Positions 8,276 to 59,361 are shown, counted from the stretch's first letter. The stretch is DNA of 64,000 nt from Parcubacteria group bacterium (GCA_041659685.1 JBAZXV010000004.1:6355-70354); one strand, 5' to 3'. Notes: a model not told the origin generated them from the sequence alone. Translations and numbers: made by a program.

Positions 8276-8276
8276 A

Positions 8277-10616: not shown

Positions 10617-10835
10617 ATGAGAATCTACGCCAAGGTGACCCCCAGGGCGGGGAAAAACGAAGTCCTGAAAATTTCAGATGGTGAATATAAAGTGAAGGTC
10701 ACAGCTGTTCCGGAAAAGGGGAAAGCCAACGAGGCGGTGATTAAACTTCTGGCGGATTATTTTGATGTTCCAAAAAGTCTTATAAGCATCATCGGCGGAA
10801 AATCTACTCGAGTGAAACTTATTGAAATCGGATAA
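10617..10835 (+). CDS. yggU: DUF167/YggU family protein
   Basis: MRIYAKVTPRAGKNEV..GEYKVKVTAVPEKGKAN..GKSTRVKLIEI matches the UPF0235 pattern. Confidence 0.75.
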   Translation: MRIYAKVTPRAGKNEVLKISDGEYKVKVTAVPEKGKANEAVIKLLADYFDVPKSLISIIGGKSTRVKLIEIG

Positions 10836-10946
10836 GTAAGATTGAAAACCAACAAACACTAGAGGTGTTGTGAATTTGTGCGCTTGTGGATAACCTCCTC
10901 TTTTTTTGTGCTATACTAAAACCAGCGAAAACCTTCCAAAACCAAA

Positions 10947-11300
10947 ATGTTCTACGAACCTCTCAAGGCAAAAAGATACATTATCATCGGAACTTCGGCT
11001 GTAATTCTGGCTGTTTTGATCGTGGCGATAGTCCCGCTTTTCTTCAAGAATCAGTCTTCATTAAAAAATCCCGCTACTGATCTGTCTCCCGAGGCCAAGC
11101 GGGAGCAGGAAAAAATCCAAAAAGAATTCGATAAACTGGAGGCGATGCGGAGAAATCAGGACGTAAAAGAATCAACCCCTGAACAGATTCAGCAAGAATT
11201 CGACTCTCTCGAAAAGCAAAGAGCCGAATCCAGCGCTACCCAGCCGACTCCGGAACAAATCCAGACGGAATTTGAGAAGCTTGAACAAATGAGGAAGTAA
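10947..11300 (+). CDS. membrane-anchored hypothetical protein with three tandem ~20-aa repeats (PEQIQxEFDxLEKQR)
   Basis: N-terminal TM; internal repeats visible in the translation; an extended -10 (tgtgcTATACT) lies upstream. Confidence 0.45.
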   Translation: MFYEPLKAKRYIIIGTSAVILAVLIVAIVPLFFKNQSSLKNPATDLSPEAKREQEKIQKEFDKLEAMRRNQDVKESTPEQIQQEFDSLEKQRAESSATQPTPEQIQTEFEKLEQMRK

Positions 11301-11403
11301 AAAATTAATTTTCAATAATATGGAACACAAAATTTATCCCATTAGACATCTCGCTTAACTAATATAAATTCTTGATATATAATCTAATTCTTAAAATAAA
11401 AAT

Positions 11404-11913
11404 ATGTCTAACAGGATTAAAAAAGCTTTCGAAAACGCCGTCTGGTGGTCGGGCGTGGTCACAGTCGGACTGATTCTCGGTATATCCCTTCAATTTGTGA
11501 GAGCCTGGACCGAACCGACGGATGTTCCTCCCAACGGCAACGTCGGCGCGCCGCTGAATACCAGTGCGGTTTCTCAAATCAAAAACGGAATTTTGGGCGT
11601 TCTGGGAATATCGACTTCGTATATTAATGTTCCGGGTCTTACTCCGGTGGCTGGAAATGTTCTAATCGCCCAGAATGCCTCCGGCCAGGTGGCTTGGGCG
11701 GCGGGAGGAGGGTGTTACGTGTCATATTCTGGCGGTTGTCTCTCGGGGTTTGTCAATAAGGGTTCTGCCGGTAAGTGGGGACGTTGCGGTGGCTCTGACA
11801 ACTACGCTTCATATTACGATCGCGCCGCCTATTTTAATCCGCCGGGTGGCGCATGTCCCAGTGCGTGGGGTTTTAAGAATCTTGGCGAAGCTTATGTTTG
11901 CTGTCAGCAATAG
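11404..11913 (+). CDS. orphan member of the 'AW(T/V)EPS..PPxGN..APINT' signal-anchored Cys-rich protein family (family A)
   Basis: N-terminus ...VVTVGLILGISLQFVRAWTEPTDVPPNGNVGAPLNTS is the same module as the A genes at 50-58 kb; the C-terminus is Cys-rich (8 Cys). Confidence 0.6.
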   Translation: MSNRIKKAFENAVWWSGVVTVGLILGISLQFVRAWTEPTDVPPNGNVGAPLNTSAVSQIKNGILGVLGISTSYINVPGLTPVAGNVLIAQNASGQVAWAAGGGCYVSYSGGCLSGFVNKGSAGKWGRCGGSDNYASYYDRAAYFNPPGGACPSAWGFKNLGEAYVCCQQ

Positions 11914-41540: not shown

Positions 41541-43592
41541 ATGGAGGAAAAAATAAATCAAAAAAATAATCCCAAGTTCATTTTTGCGGTTTTGGCGTCG
41601 CTCGCTGTTATAGGGATACTCATTTTGGCTTTTCTCTGGACGCAAAGAATAACTCGAAGAGCGCCGGTTTCGGAAATCGAGCCGGTAAACAATCAAAAAG
41701 AGAAATTGACCGAAGTTAAAAAGTTCGCTTCGGAACAGGAATTTAAGGACTATCTTGAAAAAGCAAAAAATGTCTCGGTGTTTTCCAACGGAAGAGGCGG
41801 AGGATTAATGGAAATGAGCGCAAAAAGCACCGATAGCATCAACGTGCCCCAGGCAACCGGACTTGGTGCGGCGCCAAGCCGCGTTTCGGAAACGAACGTT
41901 CAGGTGGAAGGCATAGACGAACCGGACACAGTGAAAACAAACGGAAAGGAAATTTTTTTCTCGGTCGACAGGCCGGAAATAATGCCTCTTGACGACACCG
42001 CGGGGAGAACTGATGAATCAAGGGAACTATTTCCGCTGAGCCAGACCGGCGGGACGAAATCAATTGCAGCTTTCCCGCCAGAAAACTTAAAGGTGGACAG
42101 TAAAATAAACAGATCGGGAGATCTGCTCTTATCCGATAAGTATCTGATTGTCATTCCTTCCCAGCGATATTTTTGGTCTCAGGATTCCAGCCGGATATAC
42201 GGATACGACGCCTCGAATCCTGAAAATCCGAGAGAAATTTGGAATATGGAAATCAAGAAATCAAGTTCGATTGCCGGAGCGAGGTTTTACAAGGGGAAAA
42301 TATATTTGGCGATGAAAACTGATTTTTCCGAAAACGAATCCTGCCTTTTGGAGCCTCTAGCTCTGCAAGGCGTTCCGTTTTCCATAAAATGCACGGATAT
42401 TTACCGGCCTGCAACCGTAATTCCGGCTGAAGCAACTTATTCGACAGTGATCATAGATCCGGCTTCGGGAAAAATTGAAAAAAGCGTTTCCTTCGTAGGA
42501 TCAAGCGATTACACCGCTTCAACGGTTTATATGTCGCCTGAAGCTCTTTATGTCACTTATTATTTTCCCGGAGATTCAGTGAAAATTTTAGCTTCGTTTT
42601 TCTCGGAAAATGGAGACCTTGTGCCGGATTGGCTGGCTCAAAAACTGAAAAAGCTTGAAGGATACGACATTTCAAGCTCGGCCAAGATGACTGAAGTTTG
42701 GGAACTGATCGGACGGTTCCAGAATTCTCTTTCTGACGATGACCGAATGAGAATGCAAAACGAGATCTCAAACCGAATGGGAGATTTTCTCAAAAATCAT
42801 CGCCGCGATCTTGACAGTACGGGAATCGTAAAAATTGGCGCCGGCAGTCTGAATATCGAGGCGACTGGAAATGTTCCGGGAAAACTCCTTAATCAATTTT
42901 CTCTTGACGAATATCAGGGAGACCTCAGAGTCGCCACAACAGTCGGAGAGAATTTCCTTGGCTGGGGCCTGGGCGGAGCGCGCTCGAGCGAAACGGTGAA
43001 TGATGTCTATGTTCTCGGCGACAATATGAAAACGGAAGGTTCGGTTATAGATCTTGGGAAAGGCGAGCGGATATATTCCGTTCGGTTTATCGAAGACAAA
43101 GGTTATGTCGTGACCTTTAAGCAAGTCGATCCATTCTATGTTATTGATCTTTCCGATCCGATGAATCCGGAAAAAAAGGGCGAGCTCAAAATTCCGGGAT
43201 ATTCTTCCTATCTTCATCCGATCAGCAAAGAAAGGATCTTAGGAATCGGCGAAGAAGACAATCGGGTGAAGATATCTCTTTTCGACGTAAGTGTTCCGGC
43301 AAACCCGATCGAGATCGCAAAATATAATCTTAATGAATATTACTCCGAAATTTCCCAGACTCACCACGCTTTTCTTTTGGACGCAAAACATAAAATATTC
43401 TTTCTTCCAGGCGCAAAAGGAGGCTATGTTTTCTCCTATGCCGGCGATAAAATAAACCTGGCCAAAACAGTCTCAGAAAATCAAATCAAACGGGCGGTTT
43501 ATATAGACGACTATCTATATATGCTGGGGGATAACAAGCTTATTGTCTTGGATGAAAAGAATTGGGAAAAAACCGGCGATCTTGATTTATAA
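41541..43592 (+). CDS. large secreted/membrane-anchored protein, probably beta-propeller-domain family
   Basis: 683 aa; N-terminal TM; beta-rich; YVIDLSDPMNPEKKGELKIPGYSSYLHPI resembles the secreted beta-propeller domain family. Inferred. Confidence 0.4.
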   Translation: MEEKINQKNNPKFIFAVLASLAVIGILILAFLWTQRITRRAPVSEIEPVNNQKEKLTEVKKFASEQEFKDYLEKAKNVSVFSNGRGGGLMEMSAKSTDSINVPQATGLGAAPSRVSETNVQVEGIDEPDTVKTNGKEIFFSVDRPEIMPLDDTAGRTDESRELFPLSQTGGTKSIAAFPPENLKVDSKINRSGDLLLSDKYLIVIPSQRYFWSQDSSRIYGYDASNPENPREIWNMEIKKSSSIAGARFYKGKIYLAMKTDFSENESCLLEPLALQGVPFSIKCTDIYRPATVIPAEATYSTVIIDPASGKIEKSVSFVGSSDYTASTVYMSPEALYVTYYFPGDSVKILASFFSENGDLVPDWLAQKLKKLEGYDISSSAKMTEVWELIGRFQNSLSDDDRMRMQNEISNRMGDFLKNHRRDLDSTGIVKIGAGSLNIEATGNVPGKLLNQFSLDEYQGDLRVATTVGENFLGWGLGGARSSETVNDVYVLGDNMKTEGSVIDLGKGERIYSVRFIEDKGYVVTFKQVDPFYVIDLSDPMNPEKKGELKIPGYSSYLHPISKERILGIGEEDNRVKISLFDVSVPANPIEIAKYNLNEYYSEISQTHHAFLLDAKHKIFFLPGAKGGYVFSYAGDKINLAKTVSENQIKRAVYIDDYLYMLGDNKLIVLDEKNWEKTGDLDL

Positions 43593-43744
43593 GAAAAATG
43601 CCTTTATAATGAATCGGTTTATCCCGCAATAGCATCGGGGAAGTAAATTTAGCGATGAACGTGGCATTTTGGAGGACTATTCTCCCTAAAAATAAAAATG
43701 CCAAACCCATGGGATATATCTGCACCTTCCTCTAGTTAAGATTT

Positions 43745-44335
43745 TTGCAAATGATAGATAATAATAGTTGCGAAAAAAAAACAGATGAAGAACTGGTTGT
43801 CCTGGCGCTCAAGGATCAGGATTATTTTTCATGTCTCGTGGAGAGATACGAACCAAAGCTAAAGCGTTATATTCTGCGAATTTCAGCGTCGACCCAGGAA
43901 GACGCCGAAGATCTTCTTCAGGAGATATTCGTGAAAGTTTACCGCAACCTCAACGACTTCGATCCCGGCCTAAAATTTTCTTCCTGGATATACCGTATCG
44001 CCCATAACCAGGTGATCAGTCAATGGCGAAAGACAAGAGTTCGCCCGCAAGTACTAAAATTTGAAGCTGATGAAGATTTTTTGAAGTTTATCGCGACGGA
44101 TGAGGATTTGGCCCGCGATACGGAGAGAAAATTCACGGGAGAACAAGTGAGAGCCACAATTTCCGAATTAGATCCAAAATACCGGGAAGTTTTGGTTCTG
44201 AAATTTTTGGAGGGGAAAGACTATAAGGAAATTTCAGACATCCTTGAAAAACCTCTTGGAACGGTGGCAACTCTGATAAACAGAGCCAAGAAGCAGTTCC
44301 AGAAAATCAGTAATAAAAGGGGGATTAAGTTTTGA
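43745..44335 (+). CDS. ECF-type RNA polymerase sigma factor
   Basis: Region 2 (LLQEIFVKVYRNLNDFD...FSSWIYRIAHNQ) and region 4 HTH (YKEISDILEKPLGTVATLINRAKKQF). Confidence 0.8.
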   Translation: MQMIDNNSCEKKTDEELVVLALKDQDYFSCLVERYEPKLKRYILRISASTQEDAEDLLQEIFVKVYRNLNDFDPGLKFSSWIYRIAHNQVISQWRKTRVRPQVLKFEADEDFLKFIATDEDLARDTERKFTGEQVRATISELDPKYREVLVLKFLEGKDYKEISDILEKPLGTVATLINRAKKQFQKISNKRGIKF

Positions 44336-44366
44336 TATGCATCCCGGGGCTGATCCTTGGGGTTTT

Positions 44367-44385
44367 CCTAAGGCTTAGCCTTAGG
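44367..44385. promoter_or_regulatory. CCTAAGG-N5-CCTTAGG palindrome (second copy, cf. 18974)
   Basis: cctaaggcttagccttagg between the sigma factor and the downstream membrane protein. Confidence 0.3.
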
Positions 44386-44393
44386 CAAAAACT

Positions 44394-45134
44394 ATGAAAA
44401 AGTTATGCGACAGAGTGCTTGATAAGATCAAGGAAGAAAAAATTTCTCCCAGGCCCCGATGGATTTTTTTGCTCCGCGACTGCTCGGTCTGGTCGGCTTT
44501 TATCTTTTCGGTCATCGTGGGAAGCCTGGCTTTTTGCATTATTTTGACCGTTGCTATGAACAGCGACTGGGATATTTATCAATATCTGGGACGAACCCCG
44601 TTTCAGCACATTATTTTTTCTCTTCCCTATCTTTGGATAATTATTCTGATTTTATTTTTTGGGCTGGCTTATTTCAATTACAAACACACAAAGAAGGGTT
44701 ATCAGTACCATGCCTTCACGATTTTCGGTCTGAGCATATTGAGCAGTGTCGTTTTTGGATCAATTTTTTCGGCCTCAGGGATCGGGATAAGGATAGACCG
44801 GTATCTCGACCGAAATATTCCGTCTTTTCAGGCAATGAACTGCTGCCAGATAAACGAAGGCTTTTGGGTTCAGCCGGAAAAGGGGCTTCTCGGAGGAACG
44901 GTGAAAAATGTTACTGATGAAAGAGATTTTAATCTGGAGGATTTTAACGGTTTTGTCTGGCTTGTTCATGAAGACGAGAACACACTCGAATTCGATCCGG
45001 TTCAAATCAGGGACGGTGAAGAAGTGAAAATTATCGGTGAAAAAGAGCGGGAAAACGTTTTTCTGGCGAAGGAAATCAGGCCTTGGCAGGGAAGGGGGCA
45101 GGCGCGCCCGATGCGATTTCGTTTGGACGACTAA
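44394..45134 (+). CDS. membrane protein downstream of the ECF sigma factor (possible anti-sigma factor)
   Basis: Position plus a cytoplasmic N-terminal segment followed by TM helices; no motif-level support. Confidence 0.4.
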   Translation: MKKLCDRVLDKIKEEKISPRPRWIFLLRDCSVWSAFIFSVIVGSLAFCIILTVAMNSDWDIYQYLGRTPFQHIIFSLPYLWIIILILFFGLAYFNYKHTKKGYQYHAFTIFGLSILSSVVFGSIFSASGIGIRIDRYLDRNIPSFQAMNCCQINEGFWVQPEKGLLGGTVKNVTDERDFNLEDFNGFVWLVHEDENTLEFDPVQIRDGEEVKIIGEKERENVFLAKEIRPWQGRGQARPMRFRLDD

Positions 45135-46727: not shown

Positions 46728-46988
46728 TTACTCCTGCAAATTCTTCTTTTTTTCTTCAAACTCTTGTTTATTGATCTCGCCTTTCGCATATCTTTCCTTT
46801 AGGATTGCCATTGAATTGTCGCGGTTCTCCCTTTTTTCGGGAACATGTCTGACACCGCTCGAAGAGGATCTTACCAGGAAAATTATTCCGATAATGACCA
46901 AAATCCAAAATATCACCATAATCAGGCCGCCGAGCCCGAATAATCCAAGTCCGTAATGTCCGTTGAATCCGTTCATGTAATAATGCAT
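46728..46988 (-). CDS. SHOCT-domain membrane protein
   Basis: TM helix followed by ILKERYAKGEINKQEFEEKKKNL (SHOCT motif). Confidence 0.7.
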   Translation of the reverse strand: MHYYMNGFNGHYGLGLFGLGGLIMVIFWILVIIGIIFLVRSSSSGVRHVPEKRENRDNSMAILKERYAKGEINKQEFEEKKKNLQE

Positions 46989-47239: not shown

Positions 47240-47851
47240 TTATTCCAAACAGCAGTCCACCGCTTTTCGGACGAGTTCGCCGAGCTTTCCCATAAAACCT
47301 TTGTTTGAGTTTTTCGAATCGATATTTTCGGATTTTTTGTCGGATCCGGAAGCGCTTTGGGGAGATATTTTTTCCTGGTCGTGAATATTGACGGCTCCCT
47401 GGTCTATTTTCTTTATGTCATCCGTATTGATCAGTTTCATGTTGAGGCCCCAAAAGAGGGAATAGAGGTCGTAGGCTTTCTCAAAAAGCTCTTGAGCCTC
47501 TTTTTTGTTTCCCATCCCCTGCTGTTTCGTGCCGACTTCCATGAGCCGCATTGAGGCGGCGAGAAGATGTTTCGATATGCACCAGACTTCGCCTTCATAT
47601 TCCTTGATAATTTTCCGCAGAAGATCTCCGCGCATTTTTCGAACTTCCTGAAGGAGGTCATAATATTCCGGTTTTCCGGTCTTGGCGCCTGTAAAAAAGA
47701 AATGTTCCTCAATGCTCACCAGATTCATTATCGCGATAGACAAATCCTGGTCGGATGAAAGATCCATCTTGTCTTGTTTTTTCATTTCATCGACTTTTTC
47801 AATCAGTTCGTTGATTCTTTTGAGTTTGTCGTCGTTTTTTTCTTCAGACAT
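47240..47851 (-). CDS. hypothetical cytoplasmic protein
   Basis: ~200 aa; small hairpins (acattcgatgt, tgttggga/tcctaaca) in its 5' region. Confidence 0.4.
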   Translation of the reverse strand: MSEEKNDDKLKRINELIEKVDEMKKQDKMDLSSDQDLSIAIMNLVSIEEHFFFTGAKTGKPEYYDLLQEVRKMRGDLLRKIIKEYEGEVWCISKHLLAASMRLMEVGTKQQGMGNKKEAQELFEKAYDLYSLFWGLNMKLINTDDIKKIDQGAVNIHDQEKISPQSASGSDKKSENIDSKNSNKGFMGKLGELVRKAVDCCLE

Positions 47852-47907
47852 TTGCAAATTTCTTAACATCAAATGTTGGGAGCGTCCTAACATTCGATGT
47901 CAGGTTT

Positions 47908-48429
47908 TTAACAGGTAAAATAAAGAATAAGGCTGGCAAATATGAGGAGGGAAATCGGGAAGGCCATCTTTTGGCCTTTGAAATACGAGATATTTCCGTT
48001 TCTTTTTTTGAGATAAATGTGAAGAAATGCTCCGCCGGAGAATAAGACGCTTCCCAAAATTATCCCAAAAAGAAGCTTGTCAAAGCCGCAAAACGTATTC
48101 AGCGGGTGGCCTATTTTCCCCTTGAGCCATAAGGGGAGGAGAATGATGGTATAATAGCCGGTAAAAACCAAAATCTTGCGTCCTTTGAATCGGATATTCT
48201 TCCCGCCGAGCCAGTTGATTGTCCAAACCGACATTGAAACAATCAGCGCGCCGATCCAAAGCCCGGAAATTGAATCGTCAATGCCGAAATATTCCGCCAA
48301 ACCGAGCCCTGCTCCGACTGCCACAGTGCAGACGGGGCAGACGGCGAACGCTGATTTGGCGATTAGCGCTGATAGCACAATACAGCTGGAAATTATGTAT
48401 TTTTTGTTTGGCATATTATATAAGCTCAA
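47908..48429 (-). CDS. polytopic membrane protein with a CPVC motif after TM1
   Basis: 173 aa; ~5 TM helices; CPVC directly after the first TM; divergent from the Cys-rich secreted-protein array. Confidence 0.45.
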   Translation of the reverse strand: MSLYNMPNKKYIISSCIVLSALIAKSAFAVCPVCTVAVGAGLGLAEYFGIDDSISGLWIGALIVSMSVWTINWLGGKNIRFKGRKILVFTGYYTIILLPLWLKGKIGHPLNTFCGFDKLLFGIILGSVLFSGGAFLHIYLKKRNGNISYFKGQKMAFPISLLIFASLILYFTC

Positions 48430-48707: not shown

Positions 48708-50000
48708 ATGATTAATTTAAAAAGAAAGAGGTTTTTTGCGTCAGGGCGAAAGTGGATTTTCACTTTGGCTCTTTTTGTTTTGGTCTTTGCGGCGGCGAGC
48801 ATTGTGAAAGTCAAAGCCGGAACGGAAAATAACGCTTCAGGATGGCTTTGGGGAGGGGGGACAGAATCGGATGGTTCTGCTCCGTATGACGGAACCAATT
48901 CTAATGTCCGCTGGATTAGCATGAACAGCGTAAACACTTCTTCGCCGGTTGATTATGGAGTCAATATTCCAGGCTCCGATGGTCCTGTTACCGGTTACGC
49001 TTGGAGCGGCGGAGATGATTCAGGCCCGGGGCTTGGCTGGATCGATTTCAATCCTCAGGATCATTGCACGACGGGCGCGCCGGGAGCCGGACAATACAAA
49101 GCCCTGAGTTGCGCATTGCCCGCTGGCAGCAGCGGCAGTCCTGGAGTATCCCGCTCCGGCGATAAATTGGTTGGATGGGCGAGAATCGTTGGGATTGCCC
49201 AAGAAAGCGCGAATAACAACAGCGGGGGTTGGTCAGGTTGGGTTCACATGAACGGCAATTATGGGGTTGATTTAGCGAAAATGGTCGGAGATACCGGACC
49301 CAAACCCTTGGCGGAAATGACTTTTGCCACGGCGGGAGGCGATGAACTAGGATGGATTGATTTTTCCGGGGCGAAATACACCCCTGTGTGTTCTGTTGCG
49401 TCAGTCACTCCCACGCCGCCGGTCTATCTCAAGGAACCTGCAAACAAATGTCAGCCTGTTACCGTCACACTGAAAGATGTTTCAGAGAGCAAAACGATCA
49501 ATTTTGCCGTCGATCCCGCCGGAGTAGTGAAGCTTTCCAAAAACTCTGACTGTTCGAGTCCGTCAGATGGATTTTCATTGGCCATACCGGATAACAATCC
49601 TCACAAAGTATATGTTTCTGCCAACAATTTTTCTTCCGATGCTACTGCTGATGTGGAGATAAGCGGTGACTGCGGAAGCTCAACAGAGGAAGTTCGGGTG
49701 ATAAAAACGCCTGCCTGCACGCTGAACTGTCCGAGTGAAATAACGCTTTCTACCAGCGAAACTAAATCCGTCAAATCAGAAATTTCCGCATCGGGTGATT
49801 CGGAATGCGCATCTCTTGTGACCTGTTCTGAATCAGGCACTGACTCCGAGGGAAATATCGATGTCAGCAGTAGTTGCGATGTGTCGGAAACAGGAAATCT
49901 CAGGTATGGATCTTCTGAGCTGAAAGCAACTGCCGGGTCCGGATCGTGCACTTCGCCAATAAGCATCAAGGGTCTGGGTTGGATCGAAACGAACCCGTAA
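48708..50000 (+). CDS. large secreted GW-repeat, Cys-rich protein ending in GLGWIETNP
   Basis: N-terminal TM (MINLKRKRFFASGRKWIFTLALFVLVFAAA); repeated motifs SGWLWGGG, GYAWSGGDDSGPGLGWIDFN, ELGWIDFSG; C-terminal GWIETNP shared with 55100-56173. The track start 48495 lies inside H6, so the ATG at 48708 is preferred. Confidence 0.6.
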   Translation: MINLKRKRFFASGRKWIFTLALFVLVFAAASIVKVKAGTENNASGWLWGGGTESDGSAPYDGTNSNVRWISMNSVNTSSPVDYGVNIPGSDGPVTGYAWSGGDDSGPGLGWIDFNPQDHCTTGAPGAGQYKALSCALPAGSSGSPGVSRSGDKLVGWARIVGIAQESANNNSGGWSGWVHMNGNYGVDLAKMVGDTGPKPLAEMTFATAGGDELGWIDFSGAKYTPVCSVASVTPTPPVYLKEPANKCQPVTVTLKDVSESKTINFAVDPAGVVKLSKNSDCSSPSDGFSLAIPDNNPHKVYVSANNFSSDATADVEISGDCGSSTEEVRVIKTPACTLNCPSEITLSTSETKSVKSEISASGDSECASLVTCSESGTDSEGNIDVSSSCDVSETGNLRYGSSELKATAGSGSCTSPISIKGLGWIETNP

Positions 50001-50056: not shown

Positions 50057-50542
50057 ATGAATCAAAAAACCAAAAAAAACCTCACCCACTGGCTTTCCGT
50101 GATTGTCATTGGAATTGCCTTGGGTTTCGCAATCCAGTTCGTGAAGGCCTGGACCGAACCGAGCGCGACGCCCCCCAACGGAAATCTCGGCGCGCCGATC
50201 AATACGGGAGCACAAAATCAGACCAAATCCGGTGGGATTACAGCTTCTACTCTATCTGCGACGACCGTGACAGGAACAACCCAGCTTTGCATAGGGACGG
50301 ATTGTCGCACTTCCTGGCCAAGCGGATCATCAACCACAACTACGGCAACTACAACCACACCTCCGGCTCCGACAATATACCAATGTCCGGATGACTTTTG
50401 CGCCAGAAGTTGTGGTGGCTCGTGTCTGGGACAAGTTAGTTCTTCATCGACGTGTGGAAGCTATTGGTGCTCGTATGATGGTGTTTGCGGCGGCGGCGGC
50501 GTTGGTGAGGCTCCCCCCACGAGGTCTTGTACGCCGATATAA
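50057..50542 (+). CDS. family A protein A1 (signal anchor + AWTEPSATPPNGNLGAPINTG module + Thr-rich linker + Cys-rich C-terminus)
   Basis: MNQKTKKNLTHWLSVIVIGIALGFAIQFVKAWTEPSATPPNGNLGAPINTG; 10 Cys in the C-terminal 70 aa. Confidence 0.6.
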   Translation: MNQKTKKNLTHWLSVIVIGIALGFAIQFVKAWTEPSATPPNGNLGAPINTGAQNQTKSGGITASTLSATTVTGTTQLCIGTDCRTSWPSGSSTTTTATTTTPPAPTIYQCPDDFCARSCGGSCLGQVSSSSTCGSYWCSYDGVCGGGGVGEAPPTRSCTPI

Positions 50543-50588
50543 TCTGCCTTTCAATTGATTAATAATACAAATTAACTCATAGACAAAT

Positions 50589-51059
50589 ATGAACAATTTT
50601 GAAAAATTCACCCTCGGCGCCATCAGTGTTTTGTTTGTGATCGTGATCTTTTTCGGCATCGTTCTCTTCCGCCAGCAAGAATACATCAGCGCTATCTCGC
50701 CCAATGCAGTAAGCAACACTTTACTTTCATCGAAGAAAAAAAATCCTCCAAAAGTGCTTCAGATTTTTCCCGCAACAATTGAAAGTATCTCCGGAAATAA
50801 AATTACGGTTGATATAAAGTTGCCTGACTACTCAAAACCTCAAAATCCGGGCGGGGGAAGTGTTAGCTTTATTGACAAAAAGATAACGGTGAATACAAAC
50901 AGCAAGACTGTTTTTAATAAGAGAGCGCTCGCCGATTTGAAAGAAGGGGATGCGATCTCTGTCTCTTCCTATGATCCATGGCAGACAGCGGACGCTGTCG
51001 CGGCGGAAAATGTTGCCTATGTGGCGCAATTTTCTTCTTCGCAAAACGCTCCCAAATAA
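50589..51059 (+). CDS. family B protein B1 (bitopic, DUF5666-like 'DLKxGD' beta domain)
   Basis: N-terminal TM; ADLKEGDAISVSS resembles the B-family motif NDLKVGDDVNVYS. Confidence 0.5.
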   Translation: MNNFEKFTLGAISVLFVIVIFFGIVLFRQQEYISAISPNAVSNTLLSSKKKNPPKVLQIFPATIESISGNKITVDIKLPDYSKPQNPGGGSVSFIDKKITVNTNSKTVFNKRALADLKEGDAISVSSYDPWQTADAVAAENVAYVAQFSSSQNAPK

Positions 51060-51113
51060 TATTTTTTAAGGTTGAATCTTGGCGAGAAAAATAAAATCTT
51101 AAAGTTGATGTTT

Positions 51114-51656
51114 ATGACCAAAAAAAACCTCATCCACTGGCTCTCCGTGATTGTCATCGGAATCGCTCTGGGCTTTGCCATCCAGTTCGTGAAAGCTTGG
51201 ACTGAACCGAGCGCGACGCCCCCCAACGGAAATCTCGGCGCGCCGATCAATACAAGTATCAATGATCAAGTCAAGGGAAACGCAACACAGGGAAAAATTT
51301 CGGCAAAGGATTTTTGTCTCAACAGCGATCCGACGAAATGCTTGAGTACTGTGGGCGGTGGCTTTGGGGGCACTCCGAGCGGAACGATTGATGGAAGAAT
51401 CAGCACCTTAATATGGAGCGGTGGGGCGACAGCAGGTTTATCTAACAGCTGCACAGATGAACCCCCGGGATTCTGTCGGGGACTAACTCCGATGTGTGAA
51501 GGCGGTTGGACGGTGAAGCAAATAGGATGGGATAGTAGTGGTGGAGATAATCTGCCCTATTGTGATCATATTCCGGGTCTTGGTGTTTGCGATTGGGGCG
51601 GCCCTTCAGGCTGGGTTGGCTATACCGCTTATACCTATACCTGCGTCAAAGACTAA
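51114..51656 (+). CDS. family A protein A2
   Basis: MTKKNLIHWLSVIVIGIALGFAIQFVKAWTEPSATPPNGNLGAPINTS; the N-module is nearly identical to A1 at nucleotide level; a different Cys/Gly-rich C-terminus. Confidence 0.6.
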   Translation: MTKKNLIHWLSVIVIGIALGFAIQFVKAWTEPSATPPNGNLGAPINTSINDQVKGNATQGKISAKDFCLNSDPTKCLSTVGGGFGGTPSGTIDGRISTLIWSGGATAGLSNSCTDEPPGFCRGLTPMCEGGWTVKQIGWDSSGGDNLPYCDHIPGLGVCDWGGPSGWVGYTAYTYTCVKD

Positions 51657-51672
51657 ACACTAAAACAAAATT

Positions 51673-52176
51673 ATGAATCTTCCGGAAAATCAAGGATTCT
51701 TCTCGAAATCAAATGTAATCGCGGTTGTCGTTGCTCTTTTCGTGGGGTTGATTATCGGAAGTCTTGTTTTGGGGGTATATTTCAACCGCAAATTTGACCA
51801 ACTCAAAATCCAGCTGGTTGAACAAAAAAATGGGACTCAAAAAAGCGGATCAGCGGCGAATCCTTCAAGCGCAACGAAAGAACAATTTATAGGAGGAACC
51901 ATTGAAAAAATCGATGGGAGCACTCTTACTCTCAATTCCATTAGCGAGAAAAAGATTTATACAATCAAAGTCACGAATAATACCAAGGTAACCAAAAGAG
52001 AATTTTCGAAAGATACTTCTCCAAAAGATACCGGCGCCAGTCTTTTGGATCTCAAAGTGAAGGGCAGCGTGGCTATCGGCACATTTGAAAATTTGAGAGA
52101 TAAAACTGAATTCACGGCTGATGATATTTTCATCCAACTGTTTGATAATCCGACTTCCCAGGTTACGCCGAAATAA
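51673..52176 (+). CDS. family B protein B2
   Basis: N-terminal TM; LLDLKVKGSVAIGTF and TEFTADDIFIQ motifs. Confidence 0.5.
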   Translation: MNLPENQGFFSKSNVIAVVVALFVGLIIGSLVLGVYFNRKFDQLKIQLVEQKNGTQKSGSAANPSSATKEQFIGGTIEKIDGSTLTLNSISEKKIYTIKVTNNTKVTKREFSKDTSPKDTGASLLDLKVKGSVAIGTFENLRDKTEFTADDIFIQLFDNPTSQVTPK

Positions 52177-52749: not shown

Positions 52750-53379
52750 ATGTTGACGTTTATCATAATAGTAATTGTATTCATATATTCCGTGATAATT
52801 CATGAGGTTTCTCACGGACTTGCAGCTCTTTGGCTTGGTGATCCGACCGCCAAATATATGGGTCGGCTGACGCTCAATCCAATCAGCCATGTCGATCCAA
52901 TCGGCTCGATTCTGGTTCCTCTTATCACTTTTTTTGCCGGCGGATTCATCTTCGGCTGGGCGAAACCTGTCCCGTATAATCCCTATAACCTGCGCGACCA
53001 AAAATACGGGCCGGCTCTTGTCGGTGCGGCAGGGCCGGTTTCAAACATACTTATTGCGTTGGTGTTCGGTTTTGTCCTCCGGGTTTTTCTTGTGACAGGC
53101 CAGGTTTCGGTTTCCGAAAGCGGGGTTATTTTTTCCGTTTTTTCCTATGCAATTTTAATCAATGTGCTTCTCGCTTTTTTCAATCTCATTCCTTTTCCGC
53201 CTCTTGACGGTTCAAAACTTCTTTTTGCCATTCTTCCAATCCGCGAGGAAACAAAGATGCAACTTGAACAATTCGGTCTGATTTTTCTTTTTATCCTCAT
53301 CTACGCCCTTTCGGGGCCAATCAGTATATTTCTTCATTTTATTCAGAGCTTTTTTTTCCGAGTCGTGGTCGGGATATAG
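52750..53379 (+). CDS. M50-family site-2 protease-like membrane metalloprotease
   Basis: HExxH in TM (VIIHEVSHGLAALWLGD); multi-TM; ~209 aa. Confidence 0.8.
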   Translation: MLTFIIIVIVFIYSVIIHEVSHGLAALWLGDPTAKYMGRLTLNPISHVDPIGSILVPLITFFAGGFIFGWAKPVPYNPYNLRDQKYGPALVGAAGPVSNILIALVFGFVLRVFLVTGQVSVSESGVIFSVFSYAILINVLLAFFNLIPFPPLDGSKLLFAILPIREETKMQLEQFGLIFLFILIYALSGPISIFLHFIQSFFFRVVVGI

Positions 53380-53545
53380 AACAGCGGGTCAGTTTCGGGA
53401 TATTGGCATCTATTTTTTAGTTATGGTATAATCATTGCAGATTGAAATCTTGAAATGGGGAAAAAAACAAAAAAATTGAAAAAGGGGTGTTTCCTGGTTT
53501 TTAATATCGGCGGTGTTTAACGCGCCGCTTTTTAATTGCAAAAAA

Positions 53546-54220
53546 ATGAAGAAAAAAACAAAGAATAACAGAGTGAGTCTTCGCCCAATTTTTTGGCTGG
53601 GAGTCTTGACGTTGGGATTATTGATTGGTATCTCCATTCAATTCACTCGCGCCTGGGTTGAGCCTTCTGCAACCGCGCCGGACGGGAATGTCGCCGCGCC
53701 AATAAATACGGGAGCGAACGAACAAGTGAAAACAGGAACGGCTTCTCAAAAAGCGGATATTTGCGTTGACGCTCACGGCACCGGAGACAAGAAATGTCTC
53801 AGCGACCTGGTGAGTTTCCCGGCCTGCACCCTTGCGGGAGGAATCCCGTCAACCGTCGGTTCCGCAACCATCTGTAAATTTGCCGGCGCGTCCTGTCCTT
53901 CGGGATGGAGCCAATATTTGAATTATACCGAAACAACCGCCAATACCTGCACGGGAGCGGGAAATTGCGCAACGAGTGTTACTACCGGACATCACGCGTT
54001 TGCGAATATAGATCCGGCAACCGAAGCGGGAACTTATCAAGACTGCACCTCTTCTTGGAATTCTTGTTGCTATACGACCTACAGTTGTCCTCCGGGAGTA
54101 TGGCACCCAATCGGAAGCTGGTGCGGGGCGTCGCCGGAATGCCATGGGTGCGGAGGCACTTCCTCCACACTAAAAACCTGCATGCCGAACATAAATTTTG
54201 TCGGGTGCACATCCAATTAA
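53546..54220 (+). CDS. family A protein A3
   Basis: ISIQFTRAWVEPSATAPDGNVAAPINTGANEQVKTG + conserved core DLVSFPACTLAGGIPSTVGSATICKFAGASCPSGWSQYLNYTETT..NIDPATEA shared with A4 and A5. Confidence 0.6.
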   Translation: MKKKTKNNRVSLRPIFWLGVLTLGLLIGISIQFTRAWVEPSATAPDGNVAAPINTGANEQVKTGTASQKADICVDAHGTGDKKCLSDLVSFPACTLAGGIPSTVGSATICKFAGASCPSGWSQYLNYTETTANTCTGAGNCATSVTTGHHAFANIDPATEAGTYQDCTSSWNSCCYTTYSCPPGVWHPIGSWCGASPECHGCGGTSSTLKTCMPNINFVGCTSN

Positions 54221-54237
54221 TTTTCAAAATTAAGATT

Positions 54238-55068
54238 ATGGAAAACAAAACAAAAAATATACTGATTGTGGCTTTGACCGTATTAATTATTGGTTTTTTA
54301 TTATACCAGCAAATAGCAATAGGAAAATTAAGCAAGGCGATAAAAGAAATCAGCAAATCGTCTAATAGTGCAAACCAGGATGACAATTCCAAAGGGAATC
54401 AGTTCATGGAGAAGGCTGTTAAAAGCACCATAGAGAACGGAACAAAAGACTTTACCGGGACAATTGTTTCGAAGGGGGAGAATTCGTTGAATATTGAGGG
54501 AAGTGTAGTTGACCTTTCAAAAATTTCGAATCTCTCGAAAGACGAACTTGAGCAAAGCGATAAATTGCCTAAAAACAAAAAACAATTCATCGTGAATGTG
54601 AATGAGAAAACCGAAATGCCAGTGGGACTGGGAACTCTGAAAATTGGCGATAATGTTCATGTTTTTTCAGAGGAATCTGTTTATGGTTCTGGCGCTGTTG
54701 TCGCTTCGAAAGTCTGGCTTCTGCCTGACTCAAAAGCCCTTAGCTCCAATACCGGAAATTATTTTGATACAGTTGAAAATATCGGCGGCGCGATAAAAGA
54801 AATCGGAAATAATTATTATGTAATCGAAGTTCAGTGGATCGACTATCCCAAAGATGGCAGCGCGGGAAATGTTGATCTGGCATCCGCGCCAAAAATAGTA
54901 AAAACATATAAAGTGTTAATAAACGACAAAACCGTTTTTTCAAAAAAAGGCAGGAATGACCTCAAAGTTGGTGACGATGTTAATGTTTATTCAGACAAAC
55001 CAGTCTTCTCTCTGGCTGAATTCACGGCGACAAAAATTGAAGAGTCGGTCCAGCCGCCCAAAGAATAA
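54238..55068 (+). CDS. family B protein B3 (two DUF5666-like repeats)
   Basis: MENKTKNILIVALTVLIIGFLLYQQ TM; LKIGDNVHVFSEE and NDLKVGDDVNVYS..FSLAEFTATKIEE. Confidence 0.55.
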   Translation: MENKTKNILIVALTVLIIGFLLYQQIAIGKLSKAIKEISKSSNSANQDDNSKGNQFMEKAVKSTIENGTKDFTGTIVSKGENSLNIEGSVVDLSKISNLSKDELEQSDKLPKNKKQFIVNVNEKTEMPVGLGTLKIGDNVHVFSEESVYGSGAVVASKVWLLPDSKALSSNTGNYFDTVENIGGAIKEIGNNYYVIEVQWIDYPKDGSAGNVDLASAPKIVKTYKVLINDKTVFSKKGRNDLKVGDDVNVYSDKPVFSLAEFTATKIEESVQPPKE

Positions 55069-55099: not shown

Positions 55100-56173
55100 A
55101 TGAAAAACAAAAAAAACAAAGAAAATAATGTCAAAAAAATATTTCTTGTTGTTTTGCTGGCCATCGCAATTGGCTTAATTTCTCTGTTCACGGATTCGAA
55201 GACAAGAGCGGCTTTGGACGGGTGGGGAGCGGGAATTTGGAATAATTATATTGCGGGGCACGCGGAAAATGATTCCAGTATACCTCCGACAATCGGATGG
55301 CTGAAATCAAGTTCGAGCGTCAATGGCCCTTGTCTTAAGACTGCCGATAGCGCCGAATATGAAGTTTATTTTGAAAATACCGATTTGGGCGAAAATGTCC
55401 GTTACGTGAGCGGGAAGGCCTGGTTTGGTATCGGATCTCAATCTGATTCCGGAGCGGACTGCCAGGAAGATCTTCCTTCCTTAGGCTGGCTTAATTTTGG
55501 AGGCGATCCGGGATCATTTTGCAGCGGACAGGGTGATTGCCATGCTGCCAGATGGCATAAAACGGGAGGTGATGATTATACGGGATATCTTGACGGCTAT
55601 GCGAAAATAGAATCAATGGGAGACAGCGGCTGGATCAGGTTAAGAGGTGATAATAATGGCGAAAAATACAAGGTGATGATGGATAGCTCCGGTGTTCTTT
55701 CAGGATATGCGTGGAGTTCAGGGGAAGAGAATACTATTTCGGGAAATTCAGGGCTTGGATGGATAAAAATGGATGGGCTTCAAATTGCCGAATGTGATCT
55801 GACTTGCGTGCCTAAAAAACTTTGCCAGGGAAGTTCTTTTTCCGGAACAAGTTGCAGCGATTTTTGCAGTTACGGTTCCACTTGCGCTCCCGACCTCGAC
55901 GGAGAGACAAGTTTTACGAATTGGACTTGTACTCGTGGCTGCGGTTCGAAATCCTGCGAACCTGAAATAATTGTTCCTGAAAACGGAGTGTGCGGACCAG
56001 TTGACTATATATGCGATAGAAACGTTGATGAGAGCAAGCTCTGTGCCAGCGGCACAGCCTCGGTGCCGACATATTATGAAAAAACCGCTTCGTGGACTTG
56101 CGGCAATGACTGCGGCGAAAAAGTGACATGCAGCGCGGCAACTCAATGCGGATGGATCGAAACAAATCCCTAA
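55100..56173 (+). CDS. second large GW-repeat Cys-rich protein ending in CGWIETNP
   Basis: N-terminal TM; SLGWLNFGGDPG, SGWIRLRGDNNG, GYAWSSGEEN..GLGWIKMDG; C-terminal GWIETNP. Confidence 0.6.
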   Translation: MKNKKNKENNVKKIFLVVLLAIAIGLISLFTDSKTRAALDGWGAGIWNNYIAGHAENDSSIPPTIGWLKSSSSVNGPCLKTADSAEYEVYFENTDLGENVRYVSGKAWFGIGSQSDSGADCQEDLPSLGWLNFGGDPGSFCSGQGDCHAARWHKTGGDDYTGYLDGYAKIESMGDSGWIRLRGDNNGEKYKVMMDSSGVLSGYAWSSGEENTISGNSGLGWIKMDGLQIAECDLTCVPKKLCQGSSFSGTSCSDFCSYGSTCAPDLDGETSFTNWTCTRGCGSKSCEPEIIVPENGVCGPVDYICDRNVDESKLCASGTASVPTYYEKTASWTCGNDCGEKVTCSAATQCGWIETNP

Positions 56174-56236: not shown

Positions 56237-56968
56237 ATGAAAAAAAAGAAACGAGCGACAGCAAAAATTTATAATCGCCTATCTTTCTGGCTCGGGGTTA
56301 TGGTTCTTGGAATACTAGTCGGCGTTTCCATTCAATTTGGCCGCGCCTGGGTTGAGCCTTCTTCGATGAATCCGCCCGAAGGCAACATCGCCGCGCCGAT
56401 CAACACGGGGGCGGGCAAGCAGTTGAAAACGGGAACTGCGTCCAATCCGGCAGACATCTGCGTGGATAAGTTCGGAAATGGCGATGAAAAATGTCTGGGT
56501 GATCTGGTCACTTTTCCGGCCTGCACTATGGCAGGTGGCATGCCGATTACGGTTGGCTCAACCACTATTTGCAAATTCCCGGGAGCCAGCTGTCACGATA
56601 CAGAAGTTAATGGCGCCGTAGTTCACTGGATCCAATATTTGAATTATACCGAAACGACGGCACAAACTTGCACGGGAGCGGGCGGTTGCGGAACCAGTGC
56701 CACCAGTGGTTCTCACTTTTTCGACAATATTGACCCGGCAACGGAAGCGAAGCCGTATTATAGCGGCGAGATAAGAAATGTGACATGCGGTTGCGACAGT
56801 GACAGCGTCTGTTCGTATTATGTTTATCAAAATTGGGGGTCCGGTTGGCATTGGGGATGCGCGGGCTATAATCCTCCAGTATGTTGGAACTGTGATACCT
56901 GCGTGAAAAGCGACATTCCCAGTACCTGTAATTCGAATGTTACGCAAGTTGGATGCGTTCCAAATTAA
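56237..56968 (+). CDS. family A protein A4
   Basis: VSIQFGRAWVEPSSMNPPEGNIAAPINTGAGKQLKTG + the shared core DLVTFPACTMAGGMPITVGSTTICKFPGASC. Confidence 0.6.
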   Translation: MKKKKRATAKIYNRLSFWLGVMVLGILVGVSIQFGRAWVEPSSMNPPEGNIAAPINTGAGKQLKTGTASNPADICVDKFGNGDEKCLGDLVTFPACTMAGGMPITVGSTTICKFPGASCHDTEVNGAVVHWIQYLNYTETTAQTCTGAGGCGTSATSGSHFFDNIDPATEAKPYYSGEIRNVTCGCDSDSVCSYYVYQNWGSGWHWGCAGYNPPVCWNCDTCVKSDIPSTCNSNVTQVGCVPN

Positions 56969-56982
56969 TTTATATTTATTTT

Positions 56983-57819
56983 ATGGAAAATCACAAAAAA
57001 TACATTTATATAGCAATCGCCATTTTCTTTTTTTTGCTTACCGGATTGGTTTTGTTTCAGCAAAAGATGATTTCCAATTTAAATAGTAAAGTCGGGAAGA
57101 TTGGACAAGCTGGATCAGGCAATCAGGTCAACATGGATACGAGTAAGAAAACTATTGTAGCGGCCGTCAAAAAGACCATAACGGAAAACGCAAACTCGGT
57201 AGAGGGGATTATTCGGTCAAAAACGGAAAATTCATTTGTGATTGATGCGGAGGTTGCCGATATCTCAAAGCTAGAAGGCCAAAAAGAAGAAAATTTAATT
57301 AAAGGAGATTCTTTGCCAAAAATAAAAAAAAGCTTCACCGTGGTCGTAAACGATCAAACCCATTTTCCTGACATAGGAAAGATCGGTTTCAAGCAAATTC
57401 CAGTCGGAGTGAAAGTTAGAGTGATGTGCGGTCAATCAGTCTATATTTCTGACAATCTGACAGCGTCCGAGATATATATTCTCACAAAGCTGAATATCCC
57501 TCCCTCAGAATATATCAAGCAGGAAAAAGATATTGCCGGCAAAATAACTGAAATTAATGAAAAATATCTCAAAATTGAAGTTAATTGGCTGGTTTATTCA
57601 AAAGATGTTGAGCCAAATAGGGAAAAATTTTGGGAGAATCCGACAGTGACTAAGGAATATAAGGTTAATATCGATGATAAAACCATCTTCCAAGGTGACC
57701 GGAACAGCCTCAAGGTTAATGACGTGGTTAAAGCTTTTTCAGCAACGCCGACCTTTTCTTTGACTGAGTTTACTGCGACGAAGATTGAGTGGCCGGTTCA
57801 AATGACGACGGCTGAATAG
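56983..57819 (+). CDS. family B protein B4
   Basis: MENHKKYIYIAIAIFFFLLTGLVLFQQ; NSLKVNDVVKAFS..FSLTEFTATKIEWPVQ. Confidence 0.55.
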   Translation: MENHKKYIYIAIAIFFFLLTGLVLFQQKMISNLNSKVGKIGQAGSGNQVNMDTSKKTIVAAVKKTITENANSVEGIIRSKTENSFVIDAEVADISKLEGQKEENLIKGDSLPKIKKSFTVVVNDQTHFPDIGKIGFKQIPVGVKVRVMCGQSVYISDNLTASEIYILTKLNIPPSEYIKQEKDIAGKITEINEKYLKIEVNWLVYSKDVEPNREKFWENPTVTKEYKVNIDDKTIFQGDRNSLKVNDVVKAFSATPTFSLTEFTATKIEWPVQMTTAE

Positions 57820-57868
57820 AGAGAAAATTCCATGTTTTTAGAAATAATTACTCCTAACATTAAGTATT

Positions 57869-58525
57869 ATGAAAAGAAAAATAAAAAATATAAAATTCCA
57901 CCAAAAGATTACTTTTTGGGTCAGCGTCCTGTTTCTTGGAATACTGGTCGGCGTTTCCATTCAATTCGGCCGCGCTTGGGTTGAGCCTTCCGGAACTCCT
58001 CCGGACGGAAATATCGCCGCGCCAATCAACACGGGGGCGGGCAAGCAAGTCAAAGAAGGAGATATTTGCACCACTGTAACTGGAACGGAGATATGCCTTA
58101 GCGGAGTCGTGAGTTTTCCAACTTGCACTCTCGCGGGCGGCGTTCCGACAACAGTTGGAACAGCGACAATTTGCAAATTCCCCGGCGCCTCATGCCCCTC
58201 AGGATGGAGACAATATTTGAATTATACCGAAACTGCGCCTCGCACTTGCACCGGTGGGGGCAGTTGCGGAACCAGCGTCACGAGCGGATCTCATTCTTTC
58301 GCCAATATTGATCCGGCAACGGAAGCCAGAAGCTATAGTGACGGATCAACCGAATCATTCTCATGCGGATGTTCTTCTTGTTGCACGGGTATGTGCAGCG
58401 GACCGAATGGCTGGATTGTTTGCTGTGGATATGACACTTGCGGCTGCAGTACTTGTTCCCGTTGCGTGGCTACTCCTCGGACTTGTTTGCCGAGTGTCAG
58501 TTTTGCCGGATGCGTCACTAATTAA
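57869..58525 (+). CDS. family A protein A5
   Basis: VSIQFGRAWVEPSGTPPDGNIAAPINTGAGKQVKEGD + the shared core; its Cys-rich tail differs from A3 and A4. Confidence 0.6.
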   Translation: MKRKIKNIKFHQKITFWVSVLFLGILVGVSIQFGRAWVEPSGTPPDGNIAAPINTGAGKQVKEGDICTTVTGTEICLSGVVSFPTCTLAGGVPTTVGTATICKFPGASCPSGWRQYLNYTETAPRTCTGGGSCGTSVTSGSHSFANIDPATEARSYSDGSTESFSCGCSSCCTGMCSGPNGWIVCCGYDTCGCSTCSRCVATPRTCLPSVSFAGCVTN

Positions 58526-58539
58526 ATATTTTTATACAT

Positions 58540-59361
58540 ATGGAAAATCGAACGAAATTCATTATTGTAATTGCCCTTGGAATAACTTTAGTCTTAATCG
58601 GCATCTTATTCGCTTATCAGCAAAAAACGATAACGAATCTGAAAAACGAAGTGAGTGGAATAAAAAAAGACACTTTAAACGATCAGAAAGCGGCCTTAAG
58701 CAGTCCATTTTCAGTAAAAGCTGTTCAAAATACGATAACTGACAATACGAGAAAAATAAAGGGGGTGATAACGGCCAAGAATGAAAATTTGCTTGATGTT
58801 GAAGCAGAAATAGTTGATTTCTCGAAGCTTCCGATGTTAAAAGAGGAAAGCCTGCTGGGGAGTGAAAATTCCCTTCCAAAGATAAAGAAAGACTACAAGG
58901 TGGCAGTCAATGACAAAACCCAATATCCATCAATGGAATATGAAAATTTGTCCGTCGGCATGAAAGTCTCCGTGACTTCGGATGAGCTGGTTTACAAAAG
59001 TGATGATCTGACCGCATCTGAAATTATTATTCCAGTTGCTGTGAAGGCTCCTCTGGGGGATTTCTTGAAGGCAGAAAAAAAAATAAACGGGCAAGTTAAG
59101 GAAATGAATAATAAATACTTGATTGTCGAGGTGCATTGGATGGACTACTCAAAGGTGACTGATCCCAAGAATATAGATTTCGCTGCGGCACCGACAATAA
59201 TTAAAGAATATAAAATATTTATCAACAGCGACACGGTTTTCCCTAATGGAAAAAATGATTTGAAGACCGGGGATAATGTCACTGCCCATTCGGATAATCC
59301 GACATTCTCCGTTACGGAGTTCACGGCGACAAAAATTGAAGGGCCGATTCAGCCGCAATAA
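58540..59361 (+). CDS. family B protein B5
   Basis: MENRTKFIIVIALGITLVLIGILFAYQQ; NDLKTGDNVTAHS..FSVTEFTATKIEGPIQ. Confidence 0.55.
   Translation: MENRTKFIIVIALGITLVLIGILFAYQQKTITNLKNEVSGIKKDTLNDQKAALSSPFSVKAVQNTITDNTRKIKGVITAKNENLLDVEAEIVDFSKLPMLKEESLLGSENSLPKIKKDYKVAVNDKTQYPSMEYENLSVGMKVSVTSDELVYKSDDLTASEIIIPVAVKAPLGDFLKAEKKINGQVKEMNNKYLIVEVHWMDYSKVTDPKNIDFAAAPTIIKEYKIFINSDTVFPNGKNDLKTGDNVTAHSDNPTFSVTEFTATKIEGPIQPQ

Follow-up and report, generated by a model that had tools for sequence, protein, structure and literature searches.

In a 64,000-nucleotide stretch of DNA from a Parcubacteria group bacterium (GCA_041659685.1 JBAZXV010000004.1:6355-70354; hereafter the window), two genes that we call G1 and G2 encode proteins that begin with a predicted export signal and finish with the same six residues, WIETNP. 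On balance we favor the view that this ending is one form of a six-residue recognition tag, W-x-E-[V/T/I]-x-P-COOH, found throughout the Patescibacteria on varied Sec-exported multi-domain surface proteins and probably serving their retention or docking at the cell surface. The tag is under protein-level selection, lies at the extreme C-terminus, occurs on unrelated families with export signals, and is unstructured in the monomer model. As judged from sequence, its range would take in Parcubacteria/Moranbacteria and the Microgenomates groups Woesebacteria, Curtissbacteria, and Levybacteria. It is not described in curated models (Pfam, NCBIfam, PHROGs, PDB sequences), and a search of the literature for the motif strings, GW strings, and sorting signals of the candidate phyla radiation (CPR) returned nothing relevant; this points to an undescribed sorting or docking tag.

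G1 ends in ...KGLGWIETNP and G2 in ...TQCGWIETNP, with the stop codon directly after the proline in both, exactly as the earlier note on this DNA had described. No other open reading frame (ORF) of the window has this ending. The 24 nucleotides coding for the tail differ between the two genes at four synonymous third positions (GGT/GGA, ACG/ACA, AAC/AAT, and CCG/CCC); the identity is therefore kept at the level of the protein, and these differences rule out a DNA-level repeat or terminator, or a recent duplication, as its cause. In BLASTP the two proteins match best in a segment of 245 aa (26% identity) and in one of 51 aa (35%). G1 and G2 are distant paralogues, diverged members of one very large family, which we refer to as the GW family. 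A longer ORF starting from TTG at 48495 was rejected as an over-extension of G1, as the homologues begin at the ATG at 48708. Neither protein reached a family in Pfam (E≤1), NCBIfam (E≤1), or PHROGs, and the family profile matched nothing among the PDB sequences. A search with G1 found 351 homologues, some of which match Big_1, Invasin_D3, or Big_2. Two relatives of G2 (L151 and L165; loci from other genomes are given L numbers), 33% and 49% identical to it, also terminate in WIETNP. The rest of the window contains housekeeping genes of a Moranbacteria-type (Parcubacteria, CPR) chromosome, including FtsA/FtsZ, NrdR/NrdD, thymidylate synthase, and S12-S7-EF-G, and the organism names of the homologues agree with this.

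The tail is conserved far beyond these two paralogues. Among the 120 best homologues of G1, 118 end in W-x-E-[T/V]-[N/A]-P, and in 98 the proline is the very last residue. Within the 118 tagged homologues Trp is retained in 106, Glu in 113, and Pro in 111; in the alignment of G1 homologues (alignment A1) E427 is invariant and W425 and P430 are nearly so. The eight positions that precede the tag (−8 to −1) are variable across the family. Pro is last in 83% of the family members, the other 17% or so having one to four residues beyond it. Close relatives end in GWIETNP and most others in NW[KR]EVAP. The conserved unit is thus the hexapeptide W-x-E-[V/T/I]-x-P rather than the heptapeptide GWIETNP that the earlier note had named, which these alignments suggest is the variant of the Moranbacteria lineage. 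A profile search covering 1.84 billion cluster representatives (clusters at 50% identity) placed 7177 clusters in the GW family at E≤1e-3 and 4351 at E≤1e-10. The strict motif was present in 75 of 91 new representatives from this search, and most of the others were one-residue variants or truncated. Since the motif is nearly invariant over hundreds of diverged homologues, it is more than a chance resemblance.

The tag is not a property of GW proteins, as had been supposed at first. We scanned one genome per species (596 Gb) for the exact string WKEVAP followed by a stop codon and obtained at least 120 loci; by our own calculation, with uniform base composition, about 280 such matches are expected by chance in the whole collection. 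At least 43 of the matches are long ORFs in CPR-type loci, from 224 to 1493 aa in length and of different architectures, in records named Patescibacteria, Moraniibacteriota, Parcubacteria, Woesebacteria, Curtissbacteria, and Levybacteria. In Pfam searches the tagged representatives showed PKD and Ig-like domains, TPR (with a Cys-rich part), Ig_Rha78A_N with PKD, or DUF2341 with Laminin_G_3, PA14, and Big_2, and two large tagged families were without any Pfam match. In two families the homologues were collected independently of the motif. Of 26 homologues in a membrane-anchored TPR family, 19 carry the exact tag and 5 a near variant, and in a Microgenomates family (class b) the tag is present in 73 of 77 proteins, with Pro always last. 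The class b proteins are 500–1300 aa long and have a conserved C-terminal domain of about 300 aa that has no Pfam match.

An N-terminal hydrophobic segment was found in 32 of 33 complete tagged CPR ORFs, while none of the 43 had a hydrophobic 15-mer within the last 45 residues, and the last 60–90 aa of nine tagged proteins matched nothing in NCBIfam at E≤1. G1, G2, and the same 32 of 33 complete ORFs thus have the motif in the last 6–10 residues, an N-terminal export signal, and no C-terminal transmembrane (TM) segment. Reading the naked C-terminal peptide as a recognition tag, and not as a signal of the PEP-CTERM/LPXTG type, fits all of the comparative evidence.

Two groups of matches in the scan need comment. 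Nine betaproteobacterial WKEVAP matches (L010, L013, L018, L053, L081, L084, L086, L104, and L110) are proteins of an unrelated family, DUF2950; these end in ...FDPGAGWKEVAP, and the ending, as part of the Pfam domain itself, appears unrelated to the CPR tag. Third-party metagenome-assembled genomes (MAGs) in ENA labeled "uncultured Bdellovibrionales" or "Gammaproteobacteria" carry CPR-type genes (L023, L027, L043, L054, L073, L089, L092, L112, and L123; L030, L031, L113, L122, and L124). In L089, for example, NrdR shares 72% identity with its counterpart in a Patescibacteria MAG, and the L089 locus is syntenic with the window at 4.7–8.3 kb; the taxon labels of these MAGs are probably wrong.

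The form that the tag takes follows the genome (IETNP or KEVAP) and not the protein family. G1 and G2 have the same WIETNP despite their 26% identity, and a metagenome scan for WIETNP followed by a stop codon recovered GW proteins of both subtypes together with non-GW proteins (L148, of the TPR family, L225, and L198). On contig L250 adjacent TPR and GW proteins both end in CGWIETNP, in L068 WKEVAP closes a LamG/PA14 protein as well as a GW protein, and pairs of W[KR]E[VI]-type tags occur in L042, L073, L078, and L112. In the TPR family, homologues at least 50% identical to the WIETNP query have WIET- or WVET-type tags, except for two that end in WIEVNP, whereas those at 47% identity or less have WKEV- or WKEI-type tags. 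The identity of the GW domain to that of G1 was also tried as a proxy for lineage and did not set ET-type tails apart from EV-type tails. The median was 41% in either group, since a lineage contains several paralogous subfamilies side by side. Concerted variants of this kind are the pattern expected of a recognition motif that co-evolves with a lineage-specific reader, and they are hard to explain as a purely internal structural element.

The AlphaFold2 (AF2) model of G1 (64-sequence alignment, mean predicted local distance difference test (pLDDT) 88.6) consists of a helix at residues 7–31, a compact head at about 40–225, two Ig-like sandwiches, and a coil tail. The N-terminal signal anchor noted earlier is thereby supported. 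K34 and A37, nearly invariant in alignment A1, form a K-x-x-A after the hydrophobic helix that looks like a signal-peptidase I site by the −3/−1 rule, and the putative cleavage sites would be V-K-A|G in G1 and T-R-A|A in G2. The head contains four units in G1 (GWLWGG...RWISMN, GYAWSG...GWIDFN, GWARIV...GWVHMN, and TFATAG...GWIDFS). Each is a degenerate hairpin, G-[YW]-[AL]-W-x ... G-W-[ILV]-x-[FML], of about 20–35 aa with variable loops, and the four hairpins build one compact domain of about 190 aa. The "many copies" of a 20–25-aa unit described in the earlier note thus overstated the number, which is four per protein. Modeled alone, the G1 head gave a pLDDT of 87.5 and a predicted template modeling score (pTM) of 0.86, and Foldseek found no match for it in the PDB (best E 8.7) or in BFVD. 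Residues 229–420 of G1 have a pLDDT above 90 in most blocks and tandem Ig domains as their top Foldseek matches, so that G1 is predicted to have a stalk of tandem Ig-like domains. G1 has 12 Cys and G2 has 20, in agreement with the Cys-rich character ascribed to both, and the small Cys module of the G2 stalk has no Pfam match. Many tagged CPR proteins besides G2 contain this module (G-x-C-G ... L-C-x-x-G ... W-x-C-x-G-x-x-G-G-x-x-x-x-C-x-A), among them those of L042, L052, L054, and L123. A 3-residue linker separates stalk and tag, and no hydrophobic segment follows the motif, as had been stated. The layout of cleavable signal peptide, GW head, stalk, linker, and exposed tag resembles that of an adhesin.

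The last 10 residues of G1 are modeled as coil outside the final Ig-like domain (pLDDT about 74). This bears on a "Velcro" idea that we considered, in which the tail GLGWIETNP would be a fifth GW strand completing the head, the internal GLGWIDFNP looking similar. The idea was ruled out by the coil prediction, by the nearly invariant Phe of the internal motif, which lacks the invariant Glu, at the position where the tail has Thr or Val, and by the occurrence of WKEVAP in most lineages.

Several points weigh against reading the ending as a recognition tag. Given the family members with residues beyond the proline, a free carboxylate on the Pro cannot be strictly required. Single-linkage BLAST joins many of the tagged proteins through shared Cys-rich or Ig modules, so not all of them are fully independent, although they differ in their N-terminal domains and in the stretch adjoining the tag. 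The cross-family DNA scans took the exact motif only, and their numbers are lower bounds. BLAST clustering of the ORFs that neighbor about 50 tagged loci found no adjacent gene shared across families, turning up only NrdR/NrdD housekeeping synteny, pilin-like genes in five loci, and the A-like genes beside GW genes that are described below. We infer the function of the tag (attachment, export, or docking) only from the design and distribution of the proteins. What is more, the tag of the class b proteins runs on from a conserved C-terminal region and could be partly structural there, and DUF2950 demonstrates that a family can keep a WKEVAP ending for structural reasons of its own.

The last two observations would also be expected if the hexapeptide were a structural cap, the conserved last strand of a small shuffled terminal module that stabilizes the final domain and is not recognized by anything. 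The frequent position of the tag after a Cys-rich stretch (...C.G.R.CD[YF]NWKEVAP) fits such a cap as well. However, the sequence upstream of the tag is unrelated among families, being an Ig-like strand in G1, a Cys module in G2, and Cys-free in class b; the residues at −8 to −1 vary within the GW family, and the tail is coil in the AF2 model. A purely intradomain role would also leave unexpected the same variant on unrelated proteins of one genome. We consider a structural cap unlikely.

An effect on translation is very improbable indeed. Pro-stop effects on termination are known in E. coli, and a C-terminal ...E-x-x-P-stop could slow termination and so couple chain release to export or to the downstream gene; the preponderance of terminal Pro in the GW family and the restriction of the motif to exported proteins would suit this mechanism. 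Against it, a sizeable minority of the family has residues between Pro and the stop, Trp and Glu are as conserved as Pro, and the tail codons vary freely. The lineage pattern of the variants and their wide genomic contexts argue for a protein partner instead.

A partner might be sought among the neighboring genes (Table 1). The two GW genes stand within an array of cassettes, each made up of an A gene and a B gene. The A proteins consist of a signal segment followed by AWTEPS..PPNGN, and the B proteins have a membrane anchor and a weak match to DUF5666. The order of genes in the Moranbacteria locus (Beta_propel, extracytoplasmic function (ECF) sigma factor, a multi-TM protein of about 248 aa, two small minus-strand genes, G, (A,B)n, L28, M50 peptidase, S12-S7-EF-G) is conserved in the window, L003, L245, L247, and L249.

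Table 1. Positions of the G1 and G2 genes, of the parts of their products, and of the A/B cassettes in the window.
Feature	Position	Strand	Basis or remark
G1 gene, GW-head surface protein	48708..50000	+	430 aa plus stop; start from homologue alignment
G1 signal peptide or anchor (aa 1-37), hydrophobic helix and conserved K-x-x-A (VKA|G)	48708..48818	+	AF2 helix 7-31
G1 GW head domain (aa ~40-225), four G-[YW]-A-W-S...G-W-I-x-F hairpin units	48825..49382	+	motif positions; conserved W, G, F columns
G1 stalk, two Ig-like beta-sandwich domains (aa 229-331, 337-420)	49392..49967	+	
G1 C-terminal tag WIETNP (aa 425-430)	49980..49997	+	stop 49998-50000
A1-B1-A2-B2 cassettes, directly downstream of G1	50057..52176	+	
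A3-B3 cassette, upstream of G2	53513..55068	+	
G2 gene, second diverged GW-head protein	55100..56173	+	357 aa plus stop
G2 GW head domain (aa ~38-228), with GWLNFGG, GWIRLRG, GWIKMDG	55211..55783	+	aligns with family in alignment A2
G2 Cys-rich stalk (aa 229-350, 16 Cys), two C...W-x-C-x-x-C-G...C-x-A modules	55784..56149	+	Cys positions
G2 C-terminal tag WIETNP	56153..56170	+	stop 56171-56173
A4-B4-A5-B5 cassettes, downstream of G2	56237..59361	+	

This synteny, with A-like genes near G also in L066 and L070, is what favors specific docking of the tail of GW proteins to A or B proteins encoded next to them, an interaction proposed in the earlier note. A second argument comes from the A proteins themselves. 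Every one of them has [KR]-A-W-[TV]-E-P directly after its hydrophobic segment (50147–50164, 51195–51212, 53651–53668, 56345–56362, 57974–57991, and 11503–11520), and cleavage by signal peptidase behind the Ala, if it occurs, would leave a mature N-terminus, W-x-E-P, that mirrors the W-x-E-x-x-P of the tag. The last of these positions lies in an orphan A-like gene at 11404–11913 (+), 37 kb from the A/B array, that encodes a membrane or signal segment followed by RAWTEPT..PPNGN..APLN and has no Pfam match. The A motif does not change with the tag variant in other loci (L066, L070, L245–L249): its N-terminus is constant, AWTEPT or AWSEPT, beside WIETNP and WKEVAP genes alike, which counts against docking. 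GW genes adjoin A-like genes in 7 of the 11 loci examined, those of L001, L246, L248, and L068 being without A/B neighbors, and many tagged genes of non-GW families stand in loci and lineages with no A-type gene within 8–20 kb. The tag is therefore not an A/B-specific device. We judge docking to A or B proteins distinctly improbable, and the specific interaction is left unsupported.

Other parts of the locus deserve mention in their own right. The conserved flanks at 41541–45134 and 52750–53379 encode a Beta_propel protein, an ECF sigma factor, a 246-aa multi-TM protein that is a possible anti-sigma factor, and a small M50 (site-2-type) peptidase, which hints at regulation of the G-A/B locus of the envelope-stress type. 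A small membrane protein with a SHOCT domain (46728–46988, −) is encoded between the sigma-factor region and the G1 locus. A divergent gene pair upstream of G1 (47240–47893 and 47908–48429, both −) occupies the same position in L003, L245, L247, and L249; its 173-aa product spans the membrane several times, contains a CPVC motif, has no Pfam match, and is possibly a thiol-disulfide oxidoreductase that serves the Cys-rich exported proteins. In L247, a bAvd gene and a reverse transcriptase (RVT_1) gene are inserted in the syntenic Moranbacteria locus just upstream of the ECF sigma gene (4167–5610), and the pair looks like a diversity-generating retroelement. In L250, the two adjacent tagged genes (TPR and GW) have YcaO and nitroreductase genes (2264–4492) at a distance of 2 kb; a YcaO-nitroreductase pair is typical of azoline-forming peptide modification.

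Pili offer a further place for a partner. Type IV pili are the main surface organelle of CPR bacteria, and the tag might mount non-pilin proteins on them by completing the beta-sheet of a minor pilin or assembly protein. Prepilin-like genes (G-F-T-L-I-E type) were indeed found within 8 kb of tagged genes in L031, L033, L037, L068, and L080, the clusters in L031 and L033 lying beside class b genes, and in L251 a class b gene adjoins pilM-pilN-pilO (5586–11779). These are, however, only about 5 of 50 loci, which by our own estimate is near chance given the abundance of pilin genes in CPR genomes. No pilus genes are near in L252 or in the window, and neither of the two genes ahead of class b genes encodes a pilin. 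Loading onto pili by this route is thus an improbable function for the tag.

For the recognition tag that we favor, the following mechanism can be envisaged. After export the free tail would be recognized by a putative co-evolving partner, which could be a C-terminal-peptide or beta-augmentation receptor or a processing enzyme, and which would read Trp, Glu, and the terminal Pro. The partner would then keep the protein at the cell surface, or mount it there or on a surface organelle, with the GW head outward, so that the tail would do the job of an LPXTG or PEP-CTERM signal without a membrane-spanning segment. In one candidate mechanism the tail would insert as a strand into an Ig-like or pilin fold that is itself incomplete, and a covalent bond through the invariant Glu might lock it there. 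In another, a transpeptidation like that of penicillin-binding proteins (PBPs) would release the terminal residue or residues. For a bare C-terminus to become covalently attached outside the cell, the tag itself would have to be cleaved internally; PBP-type transpeptidases release a terminal residue, so this route is chemically possible. A more far-reaching proposal, which we hold to be a possibility rather than a probability, is that capture of the bare hexapeptide by a dedicated receptor or enzyme constitutes the Patescibacteria's own undescribed form of surface display, mounting adhesin-like proteins, the GW-head family among them, on the cell surface or on host-attachment pili.

The Patescibacteria make up a large share of bacterial diversity, and the cultivated ones live attached to other microbes, yet the way in which they display surface proteins is almost unknown. 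A six-residue ending on thousands of exported adhesin-like proteins provides a simple rule for listing the candidate surface proteome of the CPR. It is also a handle for finding the machinery that would read it, and a feature that can be removed or swapped in the few tractable CPR systems. The GW head, present in more than 7000 sequence clusters and lacking a structural match in the PDB or BFVD, is a good target for structure determination and ligand searches.

Comparison with known systems places the tag among sorting signals in its logic, with differences in form from each of them. The design of G1 parallels that of Gram-positive adhesins, with the tag in place of the LPXTG signal and the head expected to point away from the cell. 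As in the LPXTG/sortase system (MSCRAMM adhesins), a Sec signal is combined with a binding head at the N-terminus, an Ig-like stalk, and a short conserved motif at the C-terminus that many unrelated surface proteins of one organism have in common. The CPR tag, however, has no LPXTG-like pentapeptide, hydrophobic segment, or basic tail, and the motif is the literal C-terminus. The PEP-CTERM/exosortase, GlyGly-CTERM/rhombosortase, and PGF-CTERM/archaeosortase systems likewise mark diverse exported proteins, several in each genome, with C-terminal tags that are restricted to a lineage. Their signals consist of a motif, a TM helix, and a basic cluster, whereas the CPR tag is a bare hexapeptide without helix or cluster, and none of the NCBIfam sorting-signal models matches the tagged proteins. 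The C-terminal domain of the type IX secretion system differs in that it is a domain of about 70–100 aa (Por_Secre_tail), which has no Pfam or NCBIfam match here, and the regions upstream of the tag are unrelated among families. The beta-signal of outer-membrane proteins differs too, as the terminal residue here is Pro and not aromatic, and the AF2 model has Ig-like sandwiches and a head but no barrel.

Two comparisons concern the body of the proteins. Like bacterial Ig-like adhesins (Big_1, Big_2, invasin/intimin), G1 has a stalk of two tandem Ig-like sandwiches, but G1 and G2 fall below the Pfam threshold and their head lacks a counterpart among the structures searched with Foldseek. The GW cell-wall-binding modules of Listeria and Staphylococcus share only the Gly-Trp dipeptide; these are SH3-like and about 80 aa long, and the unit in G1 and G2, which has no Pfam match to them (E≤1), differs in length, number, and predicted fold.

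Naked C-terminal peptides are read elsewhere by dedicated domains: PTS1 (-SKL) by the TPR domain of PEX5, the YxF ending of outer-membrane proteins by the PDZ domain of DegS, and the C-termini of pilus subunits by PapD-type chaperones. As with the CPR tag, the motif is very short, lies at or beside the free C-terminus, and involves no membrane segment. The sequences, organisms, and compartments are different, and the terminal residue of the CPR tag is Pro rather than hydrophobic or aromatic. By analogy, the CPR tag would be closest in logic to these naked recognition peptides (PTS1, PDZ ligands, and chaperone-usher C-termini), which we take as leads only.

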